Shown piece by piece: positions 22,354-61,917 of a stretch of 64,000 nt of DNA. The notes beneath the pieces were generated by a model. It worked only from the letters and a program-made list of their open reading frames with translations, was not told the DNA's origin and did not search any database. Source of the stretch: an uncultured bacterium (GTDB taxonomy: Bacteria; Krumholzibacteriota; Krumholzibacteriia; JACNKJ01); assembly GCA_963695095.1 (NCBI GenBank), contig CAVOFT010000001.1, positions 1,056,001 through 1,120,000 on the forward strand. The letters are read 5' to 3'. Both the position numbers and the translations under genes were made by a program. Position 1 is the stretch's first letter. Every line of letters starts with the position of its first letter.

Positions 22354-23337
22354 TTACAATCTTAGCACATTACCCTGCTGATGCGCCAGTCGATGACAGG
22401 CGCTGCAGAGCGTGACCAGATTGTCGGCAGCGTTGCCGCCGCCTTGCTCGCGCGGCCTCCGGTGGTGGATCTCGAGGAAATGCGTGTTTTCGCAACCCAG
22501 GCCCGCGCAGCGATGCCCGTCGCGGGTCAGCACGGCCCGCCGCTGCGCTGGCGGAACGGAGGCGCGGTTCGGTCGACCGGGAGCATGCTCGCGGCAATCG
22601 CAGGCCGCGGCAGCCGCCGCGGCGGGGGCCAGCGCCCGGCCGTCGGGCAGTTTCGCCCTTCCGCACTCTTCGCAGCGATAGATCACGATCTGGTAGGGAG
22701 GGGCGGCCTGGTTCCGGGCCGCCCGCGACTTGTCACGTGACAAGTCGGCTGCAAGAGCCGCGAAGGCAACGAGCAGCAGCTCGGCGCGAGGGCGCTGATC
22801 GCCCGCCTTGCGCAAGCGCTCGAGCATCGCCTCCAGCTGCGCGTGCTGCTCGGGACTCAGCGTGAAGCTGACCTGCACCGGCGGCGCGGGCAGCCGGGAC
22901 GGCGGGGTCTCGGCGAGCATACTCGGCTGCGCGAGATCTGCCGGCCTCGATGCCCGCGCTACCTTGACGGCCTGCTCCAGCTGCCGATTGCTTGCCTGCT
23001 TGGCAGCCTCCACCCAGCTGCGCTCGGATTGTGGAGTGGCCACTCTGGCGAGCGTGCGGGCTTTGGTCCAGCTCAACTCGCCCGCCGCGAGCGAGGCCTT
23101 CACCGCCGGCAGCGCCTCGAGCGCCTCGGCCAAGCGCATAAACTGCCAGGTCTTGTTGGCCGAAAAGCCCAACTCCACCTCCGCGTAGGCGTGAATGCTC
23201 GAGTAGCCCAGCTCGCGGTAGAGCTTGCGACACAGGATCTCCGCGAAGCAGCCGACGGCGTCGGCCTCGGCGGCGCGCAGGCGGGCGAGCGCCGCCTTGA
23301 GCGCGACGTGCAGCGCGGTCGCGGATTGCTCTGGCAT
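22354..23337 (-). CDS. DUF222-like HNH endonuclease (paralogue 1)
   Basis: LYRELGYSS N-terminus; CEECG...CDC; RDGHRCAGLGC...EIHH...GGGN..NLVTLCSACH. Confidence 0.9.
   Translation of the reverse strand: MPEQSATALHVALKAALARLRAAEADAVGCFAEILCRKLYRELGYSSIHAYAEVELGFSANKTWQFMRLAEALEALPAVKASLAAGELSWTKARTLARVATPQSERSWVEAAKQASNRQLEQAVKVARASRPADLAQPSMLAETPPSRLPAPPVQVSFTLSPEQHAQLEAMLERLRKAGDQRPRAELLLVAFAALAADLSRDKSRAARNQAAPPYQIVIYRCEECGRAKLPDGRALAPAAAAAAACDCREHAPGRPNRASVPPAQRRAVLTRDGHRCAGLGCENTHFLEIHHRRPREQGGGNAADNLVTLCSACHRLAHQQGNVLRL
22726..22747. repeat. 22-bp perfect palindrome CGACTTGTCACGTGACAAGTCG inside HNH1
   Basis: Read directly; encodes DLSRDKS. Confidence 0.95.
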
Positions 23338-23374
23338 GGGAACCCCCGACGGGAAGGCGGGGGAGGATGCTGAT

Positions 23375-23403
23375 ATTATAATGACTCGATGTGCCGATGT
23401 CAA
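23375..23403 (-). promoter_or_regulatory. consensus sigma70 promoter of HNH1
   Basis: TTGACA (23403-23398), 17-nt spacer, TATAAT (23380-23375). Confidence 0.85.
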
Positions 23404-23460
23404 GAGGAGGCCTGAAATCGAGCAGTATTGCGCGATGGCGTTTCGCGCGGCGCTCGCAAG

Positions 23461-23480
23461 GACTTGTCACGTGACAAGTC
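23461..23480. repeat. 20-bp palindrome GACTTGTCACGTGACAAGTC
   Basis: Read directly; between the AKR stop and the HNH1 promoter. Confidence 0.95.
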
Positions 23481-23512
23481 GCCGGGCGCCCGCCGCTGCG
23501 CAGGCGCTGCGC

Positions 23513-24676: not shown

Positions 24677-25666
24677 ATGCCCGCCGCCAGCCTCCTCGAC
24701 CTCATCGGCAACACGCCGCTCGTGGAGCTCACGCGCCTGGATGCGGGCCGCTGCCGGCTCTTCCTCAAGCTCGAGCTGGCCAATCCGGGCGGCTCGATCA
24801 AGGACCGCATCGCGCTGTCCATGATCGAGGCGGCCGAGGCGGACGGCAGCCTGCGCCCCGGCATGCGCTTGCTCGAGGCCACGGCCGGCAACACCGGCCT
24901 CGGCCTGGCCCTGGTGGGAGGGGCCAAGGGCTATGGCTGCAGCATCGTCATTCCCGACAAGATGAGCGGCGAGAAGATGGCCCACCTGCGCGCCCTGGGC
25001 GCCGAGGTGATCGTCACGCGTAGCGACGTGGGCAAGGGCCACCCGGAGTACTACCAGGACCTCGCGGCGCGGCTCGCCGCCGAGCGGCCGGATAGCTGGT
25101 TCGTCAACCAGTTCGCCAACCCCGCCAACCCGCGCGCCCACGAGCTGGGCACCGGCCCCGAGATCCTCGACCAGATGGAGGGCCGCGTGGATGCGGTGGT
25201 CTGCGGCGTCGGCTCGGGCGGCACGGTCACCGGCCTCTCCCGCTGCTTCGCCGAGCGCTCGCCGGCCACCGAGTTCGTGCTGGCCGACCCGGAGGGCTCG
25301 GTGCTCGCGGCCGCGGTCGCCGGCCGCCCGCTCGGCGAGGCGGGCAGCTGGCAGGTGGAGGGCATCGGCGAGGACTTCCTGCCGCCCATCCTCGATCTCG
25401 GCCGGGTGAAGCGCGCCTTCACCATCGGCGACGCGGAGAGCTTCGCCACCGCGCGCCGCCTGCTGCGCGCCGAGGGCATCCTGGCCGGCTCCTCCACGGG
25501 CTGCCTGCTGGCCGCCGCCCTGCGCTACTGCCGCGAGCAGACCAGGCCGCAGCGCGTCGTCACCTTCGCCTGCGACACCGGCAACAAGTACCTGTCCAAG
25601 TTCTACGACGACGCCTGGCTCGCCGCCCGCGGCCTGCCCATCGATGAGGAGGACTCCCGCGCATGA
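24677..25666 (+). CDS. PLP-dependent cystathionine beta-synthase/cysteine synthase (no CBS domains)
   Basis: [44 protein letters not shown]. Confidence 0.9.
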
Positions 25667-26829
25667 CTCGCGACGAGCGTCACCTGCGCTTCGAAACCCT
25701 GGCCGTCCACGGCGGCCAGCGGCCGGACCCCCTCACGGGCGCCGTGAGCGTGCCCATCTACCAGACCTCCACCTACGCGCAGCGCGCGCCCGGCGAGCAC
25801 CTGGGCTTCGAGTACTCGCGCACGGACAACCCGACGCGCAGCGCCTTGCAGGCGGCCCTCGCCTGCCTCGAGGGGGGCCGCTACTGCCGCGTCTTCGCTT
25901 CGGGCATGGCCGCCACCGATGCCGTGATCCGCCTCCTCGCGCCCGGGGCGCACGTCGTCTGCTGCGACGACCTCTACGGCGGCAGCTACCGGCTCTTCGA
26001 CAAGGTGCTGGCCAGGCAGGGCTACGACTTCAGCTTCGTCGACCTCACGGATCCGGCCGCGCTCGAGGCGGCGCTGCGCCCCGAGACGCGCCTGCTGTGG
26101 ATCGAGACGCCCACCAATCCCCTGCTCAAGGTGCTCGACCTCGCCGCGCTGGCCGCCCGCTGCCGCGAGCGCGGCGTGCTCGTCGCGGTCGACAACACCT
26201 TCCTCTCGCCCGCCCTGCAGAACCCGCTGGCCCTGGGCGCGGACTTCGCCGTGCACTCGACGACCAAGTACATCAACGGCCACGCGACGTGGTCGGCGGC
26301 GCGGTGGTCCTGAACGATGCCGCGCTCGACGAGCGCCTGGGCTATCTGCAGAACGCCGCCGGCGCCGTGCCGGGGCCCATGGACTGCTACCTCGTCCTGC
26401 GCGGCGTCAAGACCCTGGCCCTGCGCATGCGCCAGCACGAGGCGGGGGCGCGGGCCGTCGCCGAGTACCTCCAGCGGGCACCCGGCCGTGGAGCGCGTGC
26501 TCTGGCCCGGCCTGCCGGCGCACCCCGGCCACGCGGTCGCGGCGCGGCAGGCCCGTGGCTTCGGCGGCATGCTCTCCTTCGTGATCGCGGGCGGCCTGCC
26601 GGCGGCCAGGCGCTTCATCGGCGCGCTCTCGCTCTTCACCCTGGCCGAGAGCCTGGGCGGCGTGGAGAGCCTCGTCGAGCTGCCGGCCATCATGACGCAC
26701 GCCAGCGTCGAGCCGGCGATCCGCGCGCGGCTGGGGATCGTGGACGGGCTGGTCCGCCTCTCGGTGGGCATCGAGCATCCCGATGACCTGATCGCCGATC
26801 TGGACGCCGCCTTCGCGGCGCCGGCCTGA
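25663..26829 (+). CDS. cystathionine gamma-lyase/synthase (frameshifts near 26285 and 26476)
   Basis: [57 protein letters not shown]. Confidence 0.9.
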
Positions 26830-33524: not shown

Positions 33525-33590
33525 GGCCCAGCCGGCTGGACAGCCCAGAACCGAGGCCGCGCGCCGGGGCCCTTGTCACGTGACAAGAGC
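33525..33590 (-). repeat. bipartite repeat element: CTTGTCACGTGACAAG (33572-33587) plus CCAGCCGGCTGG (33528-33539)
   Basis: Read directly; collinear with 42531-42593. Confidence 0.85.
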
Positions 33591-33593
33591 CCG

Positions 33594-34682
33594 CTAGCCG
33601 CCGAGGAAGAAGCTGCGCCCCGCGTCCATGATGCGGCGGAAGGCCTCGCGATCGCCGCCGGCGACGGCGCCGAGGATCTCGTCGAGGGCCCTGTGCAGCT
33701 CCGCGGCGAGGGCGGGCGTGTTCGCGTTGAGCTGCTGGATCTCGAAGTAGAGGTCCGGGTTCTCGCGCAGCACGTCGCGGGCGGTGGCGTTCTGCTTGCC
33801 GAAGGTGGTGGAGGCCACCTCGCCCAGGCGGCGGTAGTCCAGGCCGCTCGCGCCGAGCACGCGGCCGTAGAGGATGTTCACGAGGTGGGCGAGGCCGAGC
33901 ACGTAGCCCATGTGGCGGTCGTGCTCCTCGAGCGGCAGCTCCACGAGATGCGCGCCTACGCCCACGAAGAGCTGCTTCGCCTGGGCGAGGGCCGCCCGGT
34001 TGCCGCAGTCGCAGAAGAGCACGTTGCGGCCGATGAGGTGGGCCGCGTCCGGCCCGAACATGGGATGCAGGCTGGCCACGCGCAGGCCACGGGCGGCCGC
34101 CGCGCGCAGGGGCGCCACCAGGGGCGATTTCAGCGAGGCGATGTCTAGAATCAGCCCGCGGTGCCGGGCGGGGTCCAGCGCCTCGAGCAGGCCGGGGATG
34201 CTCGCGATCGGCGTGGAGAGCACGAGCAGCTCGGCGCCCGCGGCCGCCGCGAGATCGGGGATGCTCTCGTAGGCGCCGCCCCCGGGGGCGGGGTCGAGCA
34301 CGCGCACGCGGTGGCCGCCCGCGTGGAGGTAGTCGCAGAGCCAGCGGCCCATCTTGCCCTTGCCGCCGACGACCACGGCCTCGCCCCGCTCACCGCCGCC
34401 GCCGCGGTCGGCGAGCCCGGCCTGCAGCTTCACCGCGTGATCGATGAGCAGGCCGGCCAGGGCGTCGCCGAACTCGGGATCCACGCCCCGGGCGGCGCAG
34501 CCGGCGCGCAGGCGCTCGAGCACCTGGGCCTCCACGGGGAAGTTGCGCACGGGCAGGCCGCGCGCGCTCTTGATGCGGCCCAGCTCGGTGGCGGCCTCCA
34601 GCCGGCGGGACACGGCGGCGAGGATCTCCTCGTCGCAGCGGGCGATCTCGTCGCGGAGGGCGTCGAGGCGGGGGTCGGTCAT
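33594..34682 (-). CDS. tyrA: chorismate mutase/prephenate dehydrogenase
   Basis: CM domain LRDEIARCD..RR; GGKGKMG, DIASLK, SLHPMFGP, EEHDRHM. Confidence 0.88.
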   Translation of the reverse strand: MTDPRLDALRDEIARCDEEILAAVSRRLEAATELGRIKSARGLPVRNFPVEAQVLERLRAGCAARGVDPEFGDALAGLLIDHAVKLQAGLADRGGGGERGEAVVVGGKGKMGRWLCDYLHAGGHRVRVLDPAPGGGAYESIPDLAAAAGAELLVLSTPIASIPGLLEALDPARHRGLILDIASLKSPLVAPLRAAAARGLRVASLHPMFGPDAAHLIGRNVLFCDCGNRAALAQAKQLFVGVGAHLVELPLEEHDRHMGYVLGLAHLVNILYGRVLGASGLDYRRLGEVASTTFGKQNATARDVLRENPDLYFEIQQLNANTPALAAELHRALDEILGAVAGGDREAFRRIMDAGRSFFLGG

Positions 34683-36317: not shown

Positions 36318-36337
36318 GACTTGTCACGTGACAAGTC
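36318..36337. repeat. 20-bp palindrome GACTTGTCACGTGACAAGTC
   Basis: Read directly; identical to 23461-23480. Confidence 0.95.
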
Positions 36338-39601: not shown

Positions 39602-41094
<1,493 letters not shown>

Positions 41095-42594: not shown

Positions 42595-43848
42595 CTACTT
42601 GCCCTCGTCCTTGCCGCGGACGTAGTACTCGATCGGGTGCACCTGTCCCTGGAAATCGACGAGATTGATCAGCAGCGTGCCGCTGCCATAGGCCTGCTCG
42701 TAGCGGATCCTGAGTGGGCTGAGGTCGAAGTGCTCGTTCGTCGTGAAGGCCGCGTCGCAGTCCTCTTCCAGCTCGTGGACCAGCACCGCGCGCACCTGCA
42801 CCGGGTTCGACTCCATGAAGCCGCCCGAGATGTAGCAGGTCCAGGGGTGCTCGGGCTGGCAGCCGCTGAAGGCCACGCGCAGGGCCAGGCAGTCCTCCTC
42901 GATGCGCGCCGCGATGAACTGCCAGTGGGCATCGTGCAGCGAGTCGGGCGGCAGGTCCGTGAAGACCACCGGCTCCGCGTTCGGCGCTCCGCCCCAGTGG
43001 ATGCCGAAGTCCGCGTGCAGGAAGCTCTGCGGATCGCCGTCGGGGCCCGGCGCGATGAGCACGCTGAGCGGGTTGGGCGTCGTGAAGAGGGGCGGGATCA
43101 TGTCGAAGATGGAGAAGTCGCAGGTGACCTGGTAGATGCCCACGGACGCGATGGGCAGAGCCCAGCGGCCCTCAGCATCGCTGTAGGCCAGGAGCAGGTC
43201 GCCGCCGGGCGTCTCCACGATGATCGGCGCGCCGTGCCAGCCCGGCTCGCCCTGCTCCGGCAGCCCGTTCGCGTTGCGATCCACCCACACGCGGCCGCCC
43301 AGGCGGGCGAGTCCGGGCGCGAGCCCCGCGTCCAGGCGCGCGCCGAAGGCGAAGGAGCCGAGGCCGGGATCGTGGAAGACCCAGAGCTTGGCCCGCGAGG
43401 TCTCGCCCGTCTCGAGCACGCCGTCCTCGCCGAGCAGCTCGGAGTAGTCGAAGCCGTAGGCCGGCGGCAGCACGTCCGCCAGGCCGCCCGACATGGCCAC
43501 CGCGTCCGGGTTCACCACGCTCACGACCGGCGGCCGGAAGGCGCCCAGCCAGATCATCACCGGCGGATGGATGTCGGCGCCGACATTGCGGATCGAGACC
43601 TGGATGGAGAGCTCCTCGGACTGGGGATCGATCTCGAGTCCGCCGCCGATCAGCTCGACGACCAGCGGGTTGCCGGGCAGGGTGTCCGTGACGCCGAGCA
43701 GGAACTCGCCGCCGTCGGCGTCGAAGCTGCCGCCCAGGGCCAGGTTGCCGGCGCCGGGGCCGCCCCCGGGGGCGGTGCCATCCGAGCAGCCGGCGAGGAC
43801 GAGCAGCGCGAAGGGCAGCAGGCGCAGGGAGCGCGGAAGGGCGATCAT
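42595..43848 (-). CDS. lipoprotein with SdrD-B-like domain
   Basis: LAGC lipobox; GRVWVDRNANG..EQGEPG; ADFG. Confidence 0.7.
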   Translation of the reverse strand: MIALPRSLRLLPFALLVLAGCSDGTAPGGGPGAGNLALGGSFDADGGEFLLGVTDTLPGNPLVVELIGGGLEIDPQSEELSIQVSIRNVGADIHPPVMIWLGAFRPPVVSVVNPDAVAMSGGLADVLPPAYGFDYSELLGEDGVLETGETSRAKLWVFHDPGLGSFAFGARLDAGLAPGLARLGGRVWVDRNANGLPEQGEPGWHGAPIIVETPGGDLLLAYSDAEGRWALPIASVGIYQVTCDFSIFDMIPPLFTTPNPLSVLIAPGPDGDPQSFLHADFGIHWGGAPNAEPVVFTDLPPDSLHDAHWQFIAARIEEDCLALRVAFSGCQPEHPWTCYISGGFMESNPVQVRAVLVHELEEDCDAAFTTNEHFDLSPLRIRYEQAYGSGTLLINLVDFQGQVHPIEYYVRGKDEGK

Positions 43849-44007: not shown

Positions 44008-44073
44008 TGTACACGTGTACAATCGACCGGCGATCCGCCCCCGGGGGCGGGAACCGGGTCCAGCCGGCTGGCC
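44008..44073 (+). repeat. bipartite repeat variant: TGTACACGTGTACA (44008-44021), GC hairpin, CCAGCCGGCTGG (44060-44071)
   Basis: Read directly; palindrome identical to the one inside HNH2. Confidence 0.8.
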
Positions 44074-52336: not shown

Positions 52337-53350
52337 ATGGCCGAGTTCGTGCCGAATCTCCCCGCCGCCAAGGTTGATGCCCACCTGCGTGCGGCCGTCG
52401 CCGAGCTGCGCCGCGCCGAACAGAGCGCCGTACTCTGGTTCGCCGAGCTGATGCGCCGGCGCCTCTACCGCGACTGCGGCTACTCCAGCATTCATGCCTA
52501 CGCCGAGGCCGTGCTTGGCTTCGGGCAGGCGAAGACCTACCAGTTCGTCCGGCTGGCGGAGTCGCTGGATGGCCTGCCCGAATTGCGTGCCTCCGTGGAG
52601 GCTGGCGAGTTGCCCTGGACCAAGGCCCGCAGCGTGGCGGCGGTCGCCACGCCGCGCTCCGAAGGCAAGTGGATCGCCCTCGCGAAGGCGAGCAGCGCGC
52701 GTCAGCTCGAGTCGCAGATCCGCGAGAGTCGCCGCGAGGCGCAACGCCTTCCCGGCCAGGGAGACCTGCTGGGACCTGCCGCCGAGCCGCTACCCGCACC
52801 AGTGGCCAAGGTGCAGGTCAGCTTCACGCTCGAGCCCGAGCAGCACGCCCGCTGGCTGGCCATCGTCGAGCGCCTGCGCAAGCAAGGGCAGACCGGGACG
52901 AAAGAGGAGCTGCTGCTGGCTGCCTTCGCGGCACTGGCCGAGGCGGAGTGTACACGTGTACAAAGCGAGGCGCCGTATCAGGTCGTGATCTACCGCTGCG
53001 AGGACTGCGGCGCCGCCCGCCTGCCCGACAGGCGCTCCCTGGCGCCGGCGGTGGCCGCGCAGGTGGCCTGCGACTGCCGAACGCAGCGGGAAGACGCGCC
53101 CAATCGGGCATCGATCCCGCCGTCTCTTCGACGGCAAGTGCTTGCGCGCGACGGCCACCGTTGCCAGGCGCCGGGCTGCCGAGCAACGCGCTTCCTGGAG
53201 GTGCATCACCGGGAGCCACGCCGGCGGGGCGGGCGCAATAGCACGGCGAACCTGATCACCCTCTGCGCGGCCTGTCACCGCCTGCTGCACGAAAGCGGCG
53301 TAGGGCTTGACGCCGCGCTGCCGGTAGCGGCCTTGCCGAAGCCCGGCTGA
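52337..53350 (+). CDS. DUF222-like HNH endonuclease (paralogue 2)
   Basis: LYRDCGYSSIHAYA; CEDCG...CDC; RDGHRCQAPGC...EVHH...GGRN..NLITLCAACH. Confidence 0.9.
   Translation: MAEFVPNLPAAKVDAHLRAAVAELRRAEQSAVLWFAELMRRRLYRDCGYSSIHAYAEAVLGFGQAKTYQFVRLAESLDGLPELRASVEAGELPWTKARSVAAVATPRSEGKWIALAKASSARQLESQIRESRREAQRLPGQGDLLGPAAEPLPAPVAKVQVSFTLEPEQHARWLAIVERLRKQGQTGTKEELLLAAFAALAEAECTRVQSEAPYQVVIYRCEDCGAARLPDRRSLAPAVAAQVACDCRTQREDAPNRASIPPSLRRQVLARDGHRCQAPGCRATRFLEVHHREPRRRGGRNSTANLITLCAACHRLLHESGVGLDAALPVAALPKPG
52949..52962. repeat. 14-bp palindrome TGTACACGTGTACA inside HNH2
   Basis: Read directly; encodes CTRVQ. Confidence 0.9.
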
Positions 53351-61901: not shown

Positions 61902-61917
61902 CCTGTCACGTGACAGG
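61902..61917. repeat. 16-bp palindrome CCTGTCACGTGACAGG
   Basis: Between convergent stops; compensatory T/A to C/G change relative to the other copies. Confidence 0.9.

Follow-up and report, generated by a model that had tools for sequence, protein, structure and literature searches.

Several described systems pair a nuclease or DNA-binding protein with scattered sites. Homing enzymes cut alleles that lack their gene and destroy their own site upon insertion, and Noc sites avoid the chromosome terminus. The latter are described as scattered and lowest at mid-cell (PMC8429893), REP repeats co-occur with their RAYT enzyme in the account given in PMC2817692, and the cyanobacterial HIP1 sequence is presented in PMC4390886 as a case of ratchet-like palindrome creation by point change. 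Among multicopy HNH genes, 13E12 is named as a repeat class (PMC10589994), and REP13E12 is characterized in PMC13061034 as a gene-conversion hotspot without a defined function. The locus analysed here, HNH1, shares features with each of these systems. It lies in a stretch of 64,000 nucleotides (hereafter the window) from a genome of 3.64 Mb, 93.5% complete (G000). HNH1 is a mobile nuclease gene that carries a palindrome which, judging from the structural models, its protein most likely binds. Genomes holding a given gene variant have gathered perfect copies of its palindrome, a pattern that points to a so far undescribed route by which selfish DNA may furnish a chromosome with sites for itself; a literature search, conducted mostly on freely accessible main texts, found no description of this system, and PMC3632139 concerns other ParB-like domains.

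The HNH1 coding sequence (22354..23337, minus strand; ATG at 23337, stop codon at 22354-22356) specifies 327 amino acids and is preceded on the same strand by a presumably functional consensus sigma-70 promoter (23375..23403), with a TTGACA -35 box at 23398-23403, TATAAT at 23375-23380 and a spacing of 17 bp. The preliminary description had reported a 22-bp perfect palindrome inside the gene (variant A, half-site TTGTCAC; 22726..22747), which indeed lies in frame, encoding D198-L-S-R-D-K-S204, in the linker between the second predicted dimerisation region (residues 150-199, codons at 22741..22890, minus strand) and the CxxC zinc segment. The second copy claimed upstream of the gene is likewise present (20 bp, 23461-23480), 57 nt from the -35 box, and its flanks do match the in-gene linker, over ~18 bp to one side of the palindrome and 15 bp to the opposite side, within a ~47-bp inverted match (23446..23492). 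By flank similarity to the gene this copy scored highest of the seven orphan A sites, three of which exceeded the 99th percentile of random flanks.

HNH1 is an insertion. The peptidase and aldo-keto reductase genes that flank it are directly adjacent in the relatives G006 and G034, leaving the syntenic site empty, and neither of these two empty sites contains any of the four over-represented G000 palindromes described below, the outgroups being distant. Since the copy at 23461-23480 lies about where the spacer of the relatives' empty site ends, it probably marks the 5' junction of the insertion. At the opposite end, the last HNH1 codons overlap what is probably an extended -10 box belonging to the host peptidase gene downstream (22359..22369, minus strand), an overlap that probably represents the ragged 3' junction.

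A CCTCCC motif is kept in the short leader (23338-23372) of HNH1 and most homologues, behind the near-consensus promoter; able to pair inside the leader, it is a possible translational throttle. In the genus g10 copies L064, L066, L072, L074, L084 and L030, a recurring TATACAGTA-like motif, which we take to resemble half of an SOS box, lies upstream of the -35 box; it was not seen upstream of HNH1. As regards SOS control, the stretches upstream of recA and lexA, the only two considered, held no motif to test. Elsewhere in the window (25663-26829), a cystathionine gamma-lyase-like gene is seemingly split into two ORFs by a frameshift near 26300, either real or an assembly error.

Pfam searches assigned HNH1 an HNH domain (E 2e-8) and, below the cut-off, HTH_ParB (E 0.008), and the AlphaFold model of the protein has a mean pLDDT of 89. 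Foldseek with this model returned no match at E<=0.001, ParB ranking first with a best E of 0.015, and structural re-alignment put ParB/Noc/Spo0J DNA-binding domains in all of the first 11 rows, covering residues 23-133 (codons at 22939..23271, minus strand). The best ParB/Noc-type match had a Z of 9.7, which for a helical domain falls below the tool's caution line of ~13, with an rmsd of 2.5 over 103 aligned residues. At the sequence level, similarity to ParB was not significant (hhalign probability 0.4%; no PDB match). The structural register equates Q65, T91 and R94 of HNH1 with N178, G201 and R204 of ParB, residues described as contacting parS (PMC7383237). Homodimer prediction scored 0.65 against 0.00 for the best control, a mark that 20 of 30 solved dimers but just one of 23 single chains attained in calibration; the partner pLDDT was at least 70, the runs agreed in at least 76% of contacts, and the interfaces comprised residues 4-34 (the N-terminal helix) and 150-199. 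The zinc-binding HNH nuclease domain (residues 253-327, codons at 22357..22581, minus strand), delimited by Pfam, residue conservation and a structural match to McrA-type HNH, retains H291, N306 and H315 in 130 of 130 homologues, H292 in 128 and H319 in 129, and its active site is, judging by these residues, intact.

From these models we consider it highly probable that HNH1 acts as a homodimer whose ParB/Noc-type helix-turn-helix domains read two 7-8-bp half-sites in the duplex palindrome, as ParB reads parS. The recognition module is predicted to be a ParB/Noc-like binder of duplex DNA, not a hairpin reader; hairpin recognition was considered and discarded, the palindrome strands folding but not unusually (z -1.9, -1.6). 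The N-terminal CTPase domain of ParB (PF02195) was found in none of 95 family members, its sole match in G000 being the host parB.

The further palindrome copies that had been noticed elsewhere in the window are real and form part of a larger pattern. Five exact 12-mers and one with a single mismatch occur in the window, against 0.02 expected from shuffles, and these five are among only eight exact copies in all of G000; this excess, with the over-representation of 14-mers in the genome described below, rules out a chance origin. Orphan A sites are intergenic at 33572..33587 (16 bp; missing at the aligned place in G006) and 36318..36337 (20 bp), and the copy at 61902..61917, also intergenic, proved to be a symmetric variant in which the first base of the half-site is altered in both arms. 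When all 14-bp palindromes of G000 were scored against an order-5 Markov model, four stood out with ratios of 140-650, the next reaching 7: B (33 copies), C (94), D (11) and A (7). G000 holds 15 matches to the HNH1 protein, namely nine near-full-length loci and fragments, the former comprising HNH1, seven members of subfamily B (two of them frameshifted) and one of subfamily C. Subfamilies A, B and C each carry another palindrome at the same linker position, and three of the four most over-represented palindromes (A, B and C) are the in-gene sites of these three paralogues. The window contains one subfamily B paralogue (52337..53350, plus strand), with half-site TGTACAC at the homologous linker position (52949-52962), and three variant C sites (half-site CGCCCCC) in host genes, at 34277..34290 (an equal-length replacement relative to G034 and G001), 41002..41015 (orthologue alignment ambiguous) and 43761..43774. 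An orphan B site (44008-44021) and an orphan C site (44036-44049) lie together at 44008..44049, their centres 28 bp apart.

For variant D, with 11 perfect copies, no D gene was found in the G000 assembly, which is 93.5% complete; in a relative, the linker of one gene (L038) contains D with a single mismatch, and two further copies of D lie close to that gene. Variant D (e.g., C1:251999 and C1:3329185) is one base away from A in each half-site; its arms are unusually long, site-specific and up to 34 bp (p 0.003).

Palindromes of different variants adjoin within 40 bp in seven G000 pairs versus 0.36 expected, mostly 24-28 bp apart (centres on C1 at 233778/233802, 388672/388708, 772927/772954, 1100014/1100042, which is the pair at 44008-44049 of the window, 2808061/2808076, 2950910/2950936 and 3281988/3282014). 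Mixed arrays exist elsewhere, as a triple array in G001 and alternating arrays in G009, and chimeric sites composed of two different half-sites were absent from G000. Such neighbouring variants may be traces of earlier specificities or may reflect a set cutting distance. At C1:860255-860295 and C1:431722-431762 of G000, and in proteins P0004, P0028 and P0094, the 27-bp linker unit that bears the palindrome is duplicated in tandem, with two or three copies, which is a possible route for specificity drift. The linker sites of L059, L062, L063 and L069 (genera g53 and g30) are CACGTG-centred, asymmetric and non-palindromic, possibly decayed or hybrid specificities.

The family comprises 1,726 clusters at E<=1e-30 and is present in 67 of the 151 genomes of the phylum sample, the DNA-level tests covering one phylum-level group. 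A perfect 14-mer palindrome was found in 55 of 73 genes versus 144 of 872 flank windows of equal size. In an enlarged set, 95 of 130 genes had a perfect palindrome at the linker or at two lineage-specific positions, and removal of four genes with non-CG-centred palindromes left 91 of 130, with 27 variants; the other 39 had no perfect CG-centred site at the scored positions. Some lineages have shifted the site elsewhere within the gene, by an equal-length change.

The expectation that a gene's variant would predict the repeat of its genome held as well. The flanks contained own-genome variants 38 times in 1.32 Mb and foreign variants six times in 17.8 Mb, and for 13 of the 18 variants no orphan turned up in the flanks sampled from their own genomes. 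Genome-wide, the variant A 14-mer occurs in 3 of 151 genomes (7, 5 and 3 copies), all with an in-gene copy; variant B occurs in eight of the 151, each of which has the family, and reaches 26-33 copies in three of them. Counts in chosen genomes gave, for variant C, 123 and 24 copies in the two relatives out of 19 that have C genes and 0-2 in the remaining 17; 96-296 copies of the g10 variant in all seven g10 genomes and 0-1 in 20 family-negative ones (58 genomes chosen); and 10-26 copies of a fifth variant in five of 45, with at most one in 15 family-negative genomes. Gene presence, in genomes that as kin are not independent, tracks the abundance of the cognate repeat, the exception being G060, which has only two copies of the fifth variant though its gene carries that variant. 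Sites are also enriched near the cognate gene for A (three of six within 50 kb, 0.2 expected) and C (six of 90 within 20 kb, 1.0 expected), with no such enrichment for B, and the density of cognate sites is 0.72 per kb at gene ends versus 0.032 per kb further out.

Across 29 representatives, similarity at residues 59-66 and 90-95, a set of recognition residues picked after the data were seen, tracks half-site similarity once overall identity is removed (partial r -0.42, 0/500 permutations), while the dimer region and the HNH domain do not (r 0.00 and 0.06), nor does the N-terminal helix. R94 accompanies C at half-site position 5 in 65 of 68 genes versus 3 of 23; only four phylogenetically independent pairs were available for this rule, none opposite, and the underpowered comparison was not significant (median p 0.25). 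Rules at residues 64, 65 and 95 gained no support from independent pairs and were abandoned, and raw residue-base mutual information, dominated by phylogeny and by the site's own codons, was not used.

The mobility seen at HNH1 extends to other members of the family. Reciprocally, 6 of 17 distinct copies in relatives have an empty orthologous site in G000, and none of these six holds any of the four G000 palindromes, leaving pre-existing targets without support. Among the C copies of G006, six of seven share sequence that starts exactly at the palindrome, the other end being ragged; in g10, a site lies in the 3' tail of 10 of 15 copies, which diverge beyond it, and in g2 five of seven copies have one there, exact or with a single mismatch. 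At 14 of 39 loci an additional cognate site lies near at least one end (six upstream, 10 at the 3' end), an arrangement that is thus common but not universal. Subfamily B copies of G000 have imperfect ~40-bp inverted ends beside the stop codons of neighbouring genes, with CTAG-like flanks (e.g., C1:903716-905045), an end structure that, unlike the palindrome junctions, perhaps derives from capture by a MITE. Carriage by phages was also considered and rejected: all 24 viral-contig matches were to the HNH domain only, with no full-length member.

The orphan sites differ among variants in their setting. As delimited by our own gene caller, A, B and D sites are mostly intergenic, and 57 of 94 C sites fall within called genes, two of them in the C gene itself. 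Eighteen in-gene sites were examined, of which four had no orthologue, two were in an HNH gene and 12 were in host genes with an aligned orthologue. For ten of these 12, alignment with at least one orthologue that has no site shows equal length, a coarse call since the orthologues are 42-85% identical; one lies in an insertion found only in G000 and one is ambiguous. Exact palindromic codons were used in 39 of 138 APGG peptides (4.1 expected) and 16 of 67 PPGA peptides (0.8 expected). The conserved PAPGGGS motif is encoded by the exact palindrome in three C-gene genomes, and in G009, with one copy genome-wide, the same peptide is encoded by other codons. Perfect copies outnumber those with one mismatch (7:2 for A, 33:2 for B, 11:1 for D and 94:32 for C). 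An origin of the sites by fold-back of a single half-site was rejected as a general route: arms beyond the core totalled 275 versus 219.5 permuted (211 sites, p 0.002), a signal driven by variant D and the TCC variants and missing from B and the g10 variant, and only a minor contribution is retained.

We lean, by slightly more than an even chance, towards a selfish, transposase-less unit in which cutting and templated repair write and maintain the sites and copy the gene. The tethered HNH domain would nick or cut at or near bound sites, and host repair would then copy from a second cognate site or from the opposite arm. Where the repair tracts are short, near-matches would become perfect sites and stay perfect, also within host genes; longer tracts would copy the linker and occasionally the whole gene, with one junction at the palindrome and the other ragged, and old gene copies would erode to the protected palindrome. 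In this proposal, gene and site would change in step, since the gene has to retain a site that can be read, either internally or next to it. We prefer cutting and templated repair because they cover the rewrites, the copied tracts, the one-sided junctions and the local clustering alike. Free cutting of a perfect site would be lethal with 94-296 sites per genome, so this model needs some restraint on cutting. More tentatively, and a little short of an even call, the model may be generalized: a widespread class of selfish ParB-fold/HNH nucleases would spread, with no transposase, by converting near-matches, even conserved host codons, into their own palindrome, and these sites would serve to prime gene copying.

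The best-surviving alternative, which we nonetheless regard as unlikely, is that the protein binds sites without making them, the sites arising by ordinary mutation and being selected, for self-repression near the gene and for a Noc-like nucleoid or chromosome-cycle role elsewhere. In its favour is the position of the sites on the chromosome. With the origin of G000 placed by dnaA and parAB, the terminus-proximal third holds only 6 of 146 sites, while one-mismatch C copies are spread evenly and perfect copies are not; the exact palindromic codons were used in 53 of 142 peptides near the origin versus 2 of 63 far from it; and G047 repeats the gap, with 6 of 103 sites in 0.92-3.25 Mb and dnaA at 4.60 Mb. 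Three sites are common to different genera, and sites cluster near the promoter. Terminus avoidance and cross-genus sites fit selection equally well. Selection, however, explains these two features and not the turnover or perfection of the sites: binding sites under selection are usually degenerate, as with the two host parS-like sites, which differ by one base, whereas almost no one-mismatch sites were seen. It is also at odds with the 27 variants, the patchy presence of the family and the three specificities in one genome, with the amino-acid changes that some sites impose on host proteins, with the near invariance of the HNH residues and with linker tracts copied together with their flanks.

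Cumulative GC skew did not locate the origin of G000, whereas dnaA, parAB and the gene-strand switch did. The interval C1:1.4-2.6 Mb is avoided by all site families and by near-full-length family genes. Beside the gidAB-dnaA region lies the host parAB locus (C1:149593-152189), with two parS-like sites (151328 and 151852) that differ from each other by one base; the host site is not among the amplified variants.

Rather less probable, in our judgement, is a REP/REPIN-like arrangement, in which the palindromes are element ends and the orphans inserted non-autonomous units, excision footprints or eroded copies. The preliminary description had drawn this analogy and proposed the orphans as non-autonomous derivatives or cognate sites. 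The junctions at palindromes and the co-occurrence of enzyme and repeat speak for such an arrangement, as do about 12 remnants of subfamily B, several of which retain the palindrome along with both ends; coverage by partial B copies peaks at the palindrome, averaging 10.3 in that bin and at most 4.4 elsewhere. Flanks in common with the gene were found at 19 of 32 other B sites (seven of them in gene copies) but at only three of seven A and 7 of 93 C orphans, and the orphans have no common unit length; in G009, a linker-like two-site tract lies upstream of a gene. Neither a Y1 transposase (PF01797) nor DDE_Tnp_1 (PF01609) was found in G000 at 93.5% completeness, and the equal-length or synonymous creation of sites within host genes would be left unexplained. 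The derivative reading covers the dozen or so B remnants and not most orphans. What carries over from REP is the logic, in which enzyme and cognate repeat co-evolve, but not the parts, an HUH transposase and uniform repeat units being missing. The weakest account, that a host process (HIP1-like methylation-directed repair, or host ParB) makes palindromes that the gene merely collects, has the HIP1 precedent and the parS resemblance and origin-proximal preference of all sites in its favour, yet is already strained and very improbable, since the variant follows the gene subfamily and not the host, three variants sit in three paralogues of G000, family-negative genomes have near-zero counts, and A and C (although not B) are enriched around their cognate gene.

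If the preferred reading of cutting and templated repair is true, selfish DNA can spread with neither a transposase nor a guide RNA, a mobile gene edits host codons to make its own sites, and the source of the lineage-specific over-represented palindromes in these genomes is accounted for; a large HNH family related to DUF222/13E12 would gain a function. On the broader, more tentative reading, the DUF222/13E12 repeats would gain a mechanism as well, and the family would amount to a natural collection of 27 or more HTH-palindrome pairs. Should the sites only be bound, every gene would still display its own target, making the family a convenient source of ParB-type recognition codes for orthogonal parS-like labelling and for studying the evolution of specificity.

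As to known systems, the features looked for in comparison with DDE insertion sequences and MITEs gave imperfect inverted ends with CTAG-like flanks in subfamily B of G000 only, and PF01609, the DDE family searched for there, was not found. Free-standing HNH homing endonucleases resemble HNH1 as selfish nucleases that would spread via host repair, but HNH1 keeps an intact site within the gene and has copies at unrelated loci, and the empty counterparts of family insertions, in distant outgroups, lack the four G000 palindromes. HIP1 shares with the HNH1-family sites an over-represented palindrome in coding and non-coding DNA and a proposed mutational ratchet; the family sites, however, measure 14-16 bp instead of 8, number tens to hundreds of copies and are tied to a mobile HTH-HNH gene, HIP1 being associated with methyltransferases. 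With REP/BIME/REPIN-RAYT the family has in common enzyme-repeat co-evolution, a correlation of gene with repeat abundance and sites that often flank the gene. It differs in having HNH and HTH domains in place of the HUH Y1 transposase of RAYT, and a duplex-type perfect palindrome, in frame in the gene and present in many coding copies without length change. Moreover, REP repeats are extragenic, in contrast to the mostly in-gene variant C, and the REP/RAYT gene is flanked by two inverted repeats, compared with the end-proximal site of a minority of our loci. DUF222 (PF02720)-HNH/REP13E12 genes, like those of the family, are multicopy and dispersed, with a C-terminal HNH and no known mover. Weak DUF222 matches were obtained for 22 of 95 family members at E<=0.01 (best E 1e-7) but not for HNH1, which is shorter than DUF222/13E12 proteins; the nearest Atlas cluster (0.96) has DUF222 on 15% of its members, and the family is, on these similarities, probably a distant relative of DUF222/13E12. 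ParB-parS and Noc-NBS share with the HNH1 family the DNA-binding fold, a loop-less CG-centred palindrome of 14-16 bp, the register of contact residues and scattered sites, whereas the family dispenses with the N-terminal CTPase domain, is fused to HNH, is mobile and multicopy, places the site within the gene and has 27 specificities where ParB and Noc have one conserved site. The contributions of the present analysis are the genome-wide match between gene and site, the replacement of host codons at constant length, the structure of the junctions and the avoidance of the terminus.
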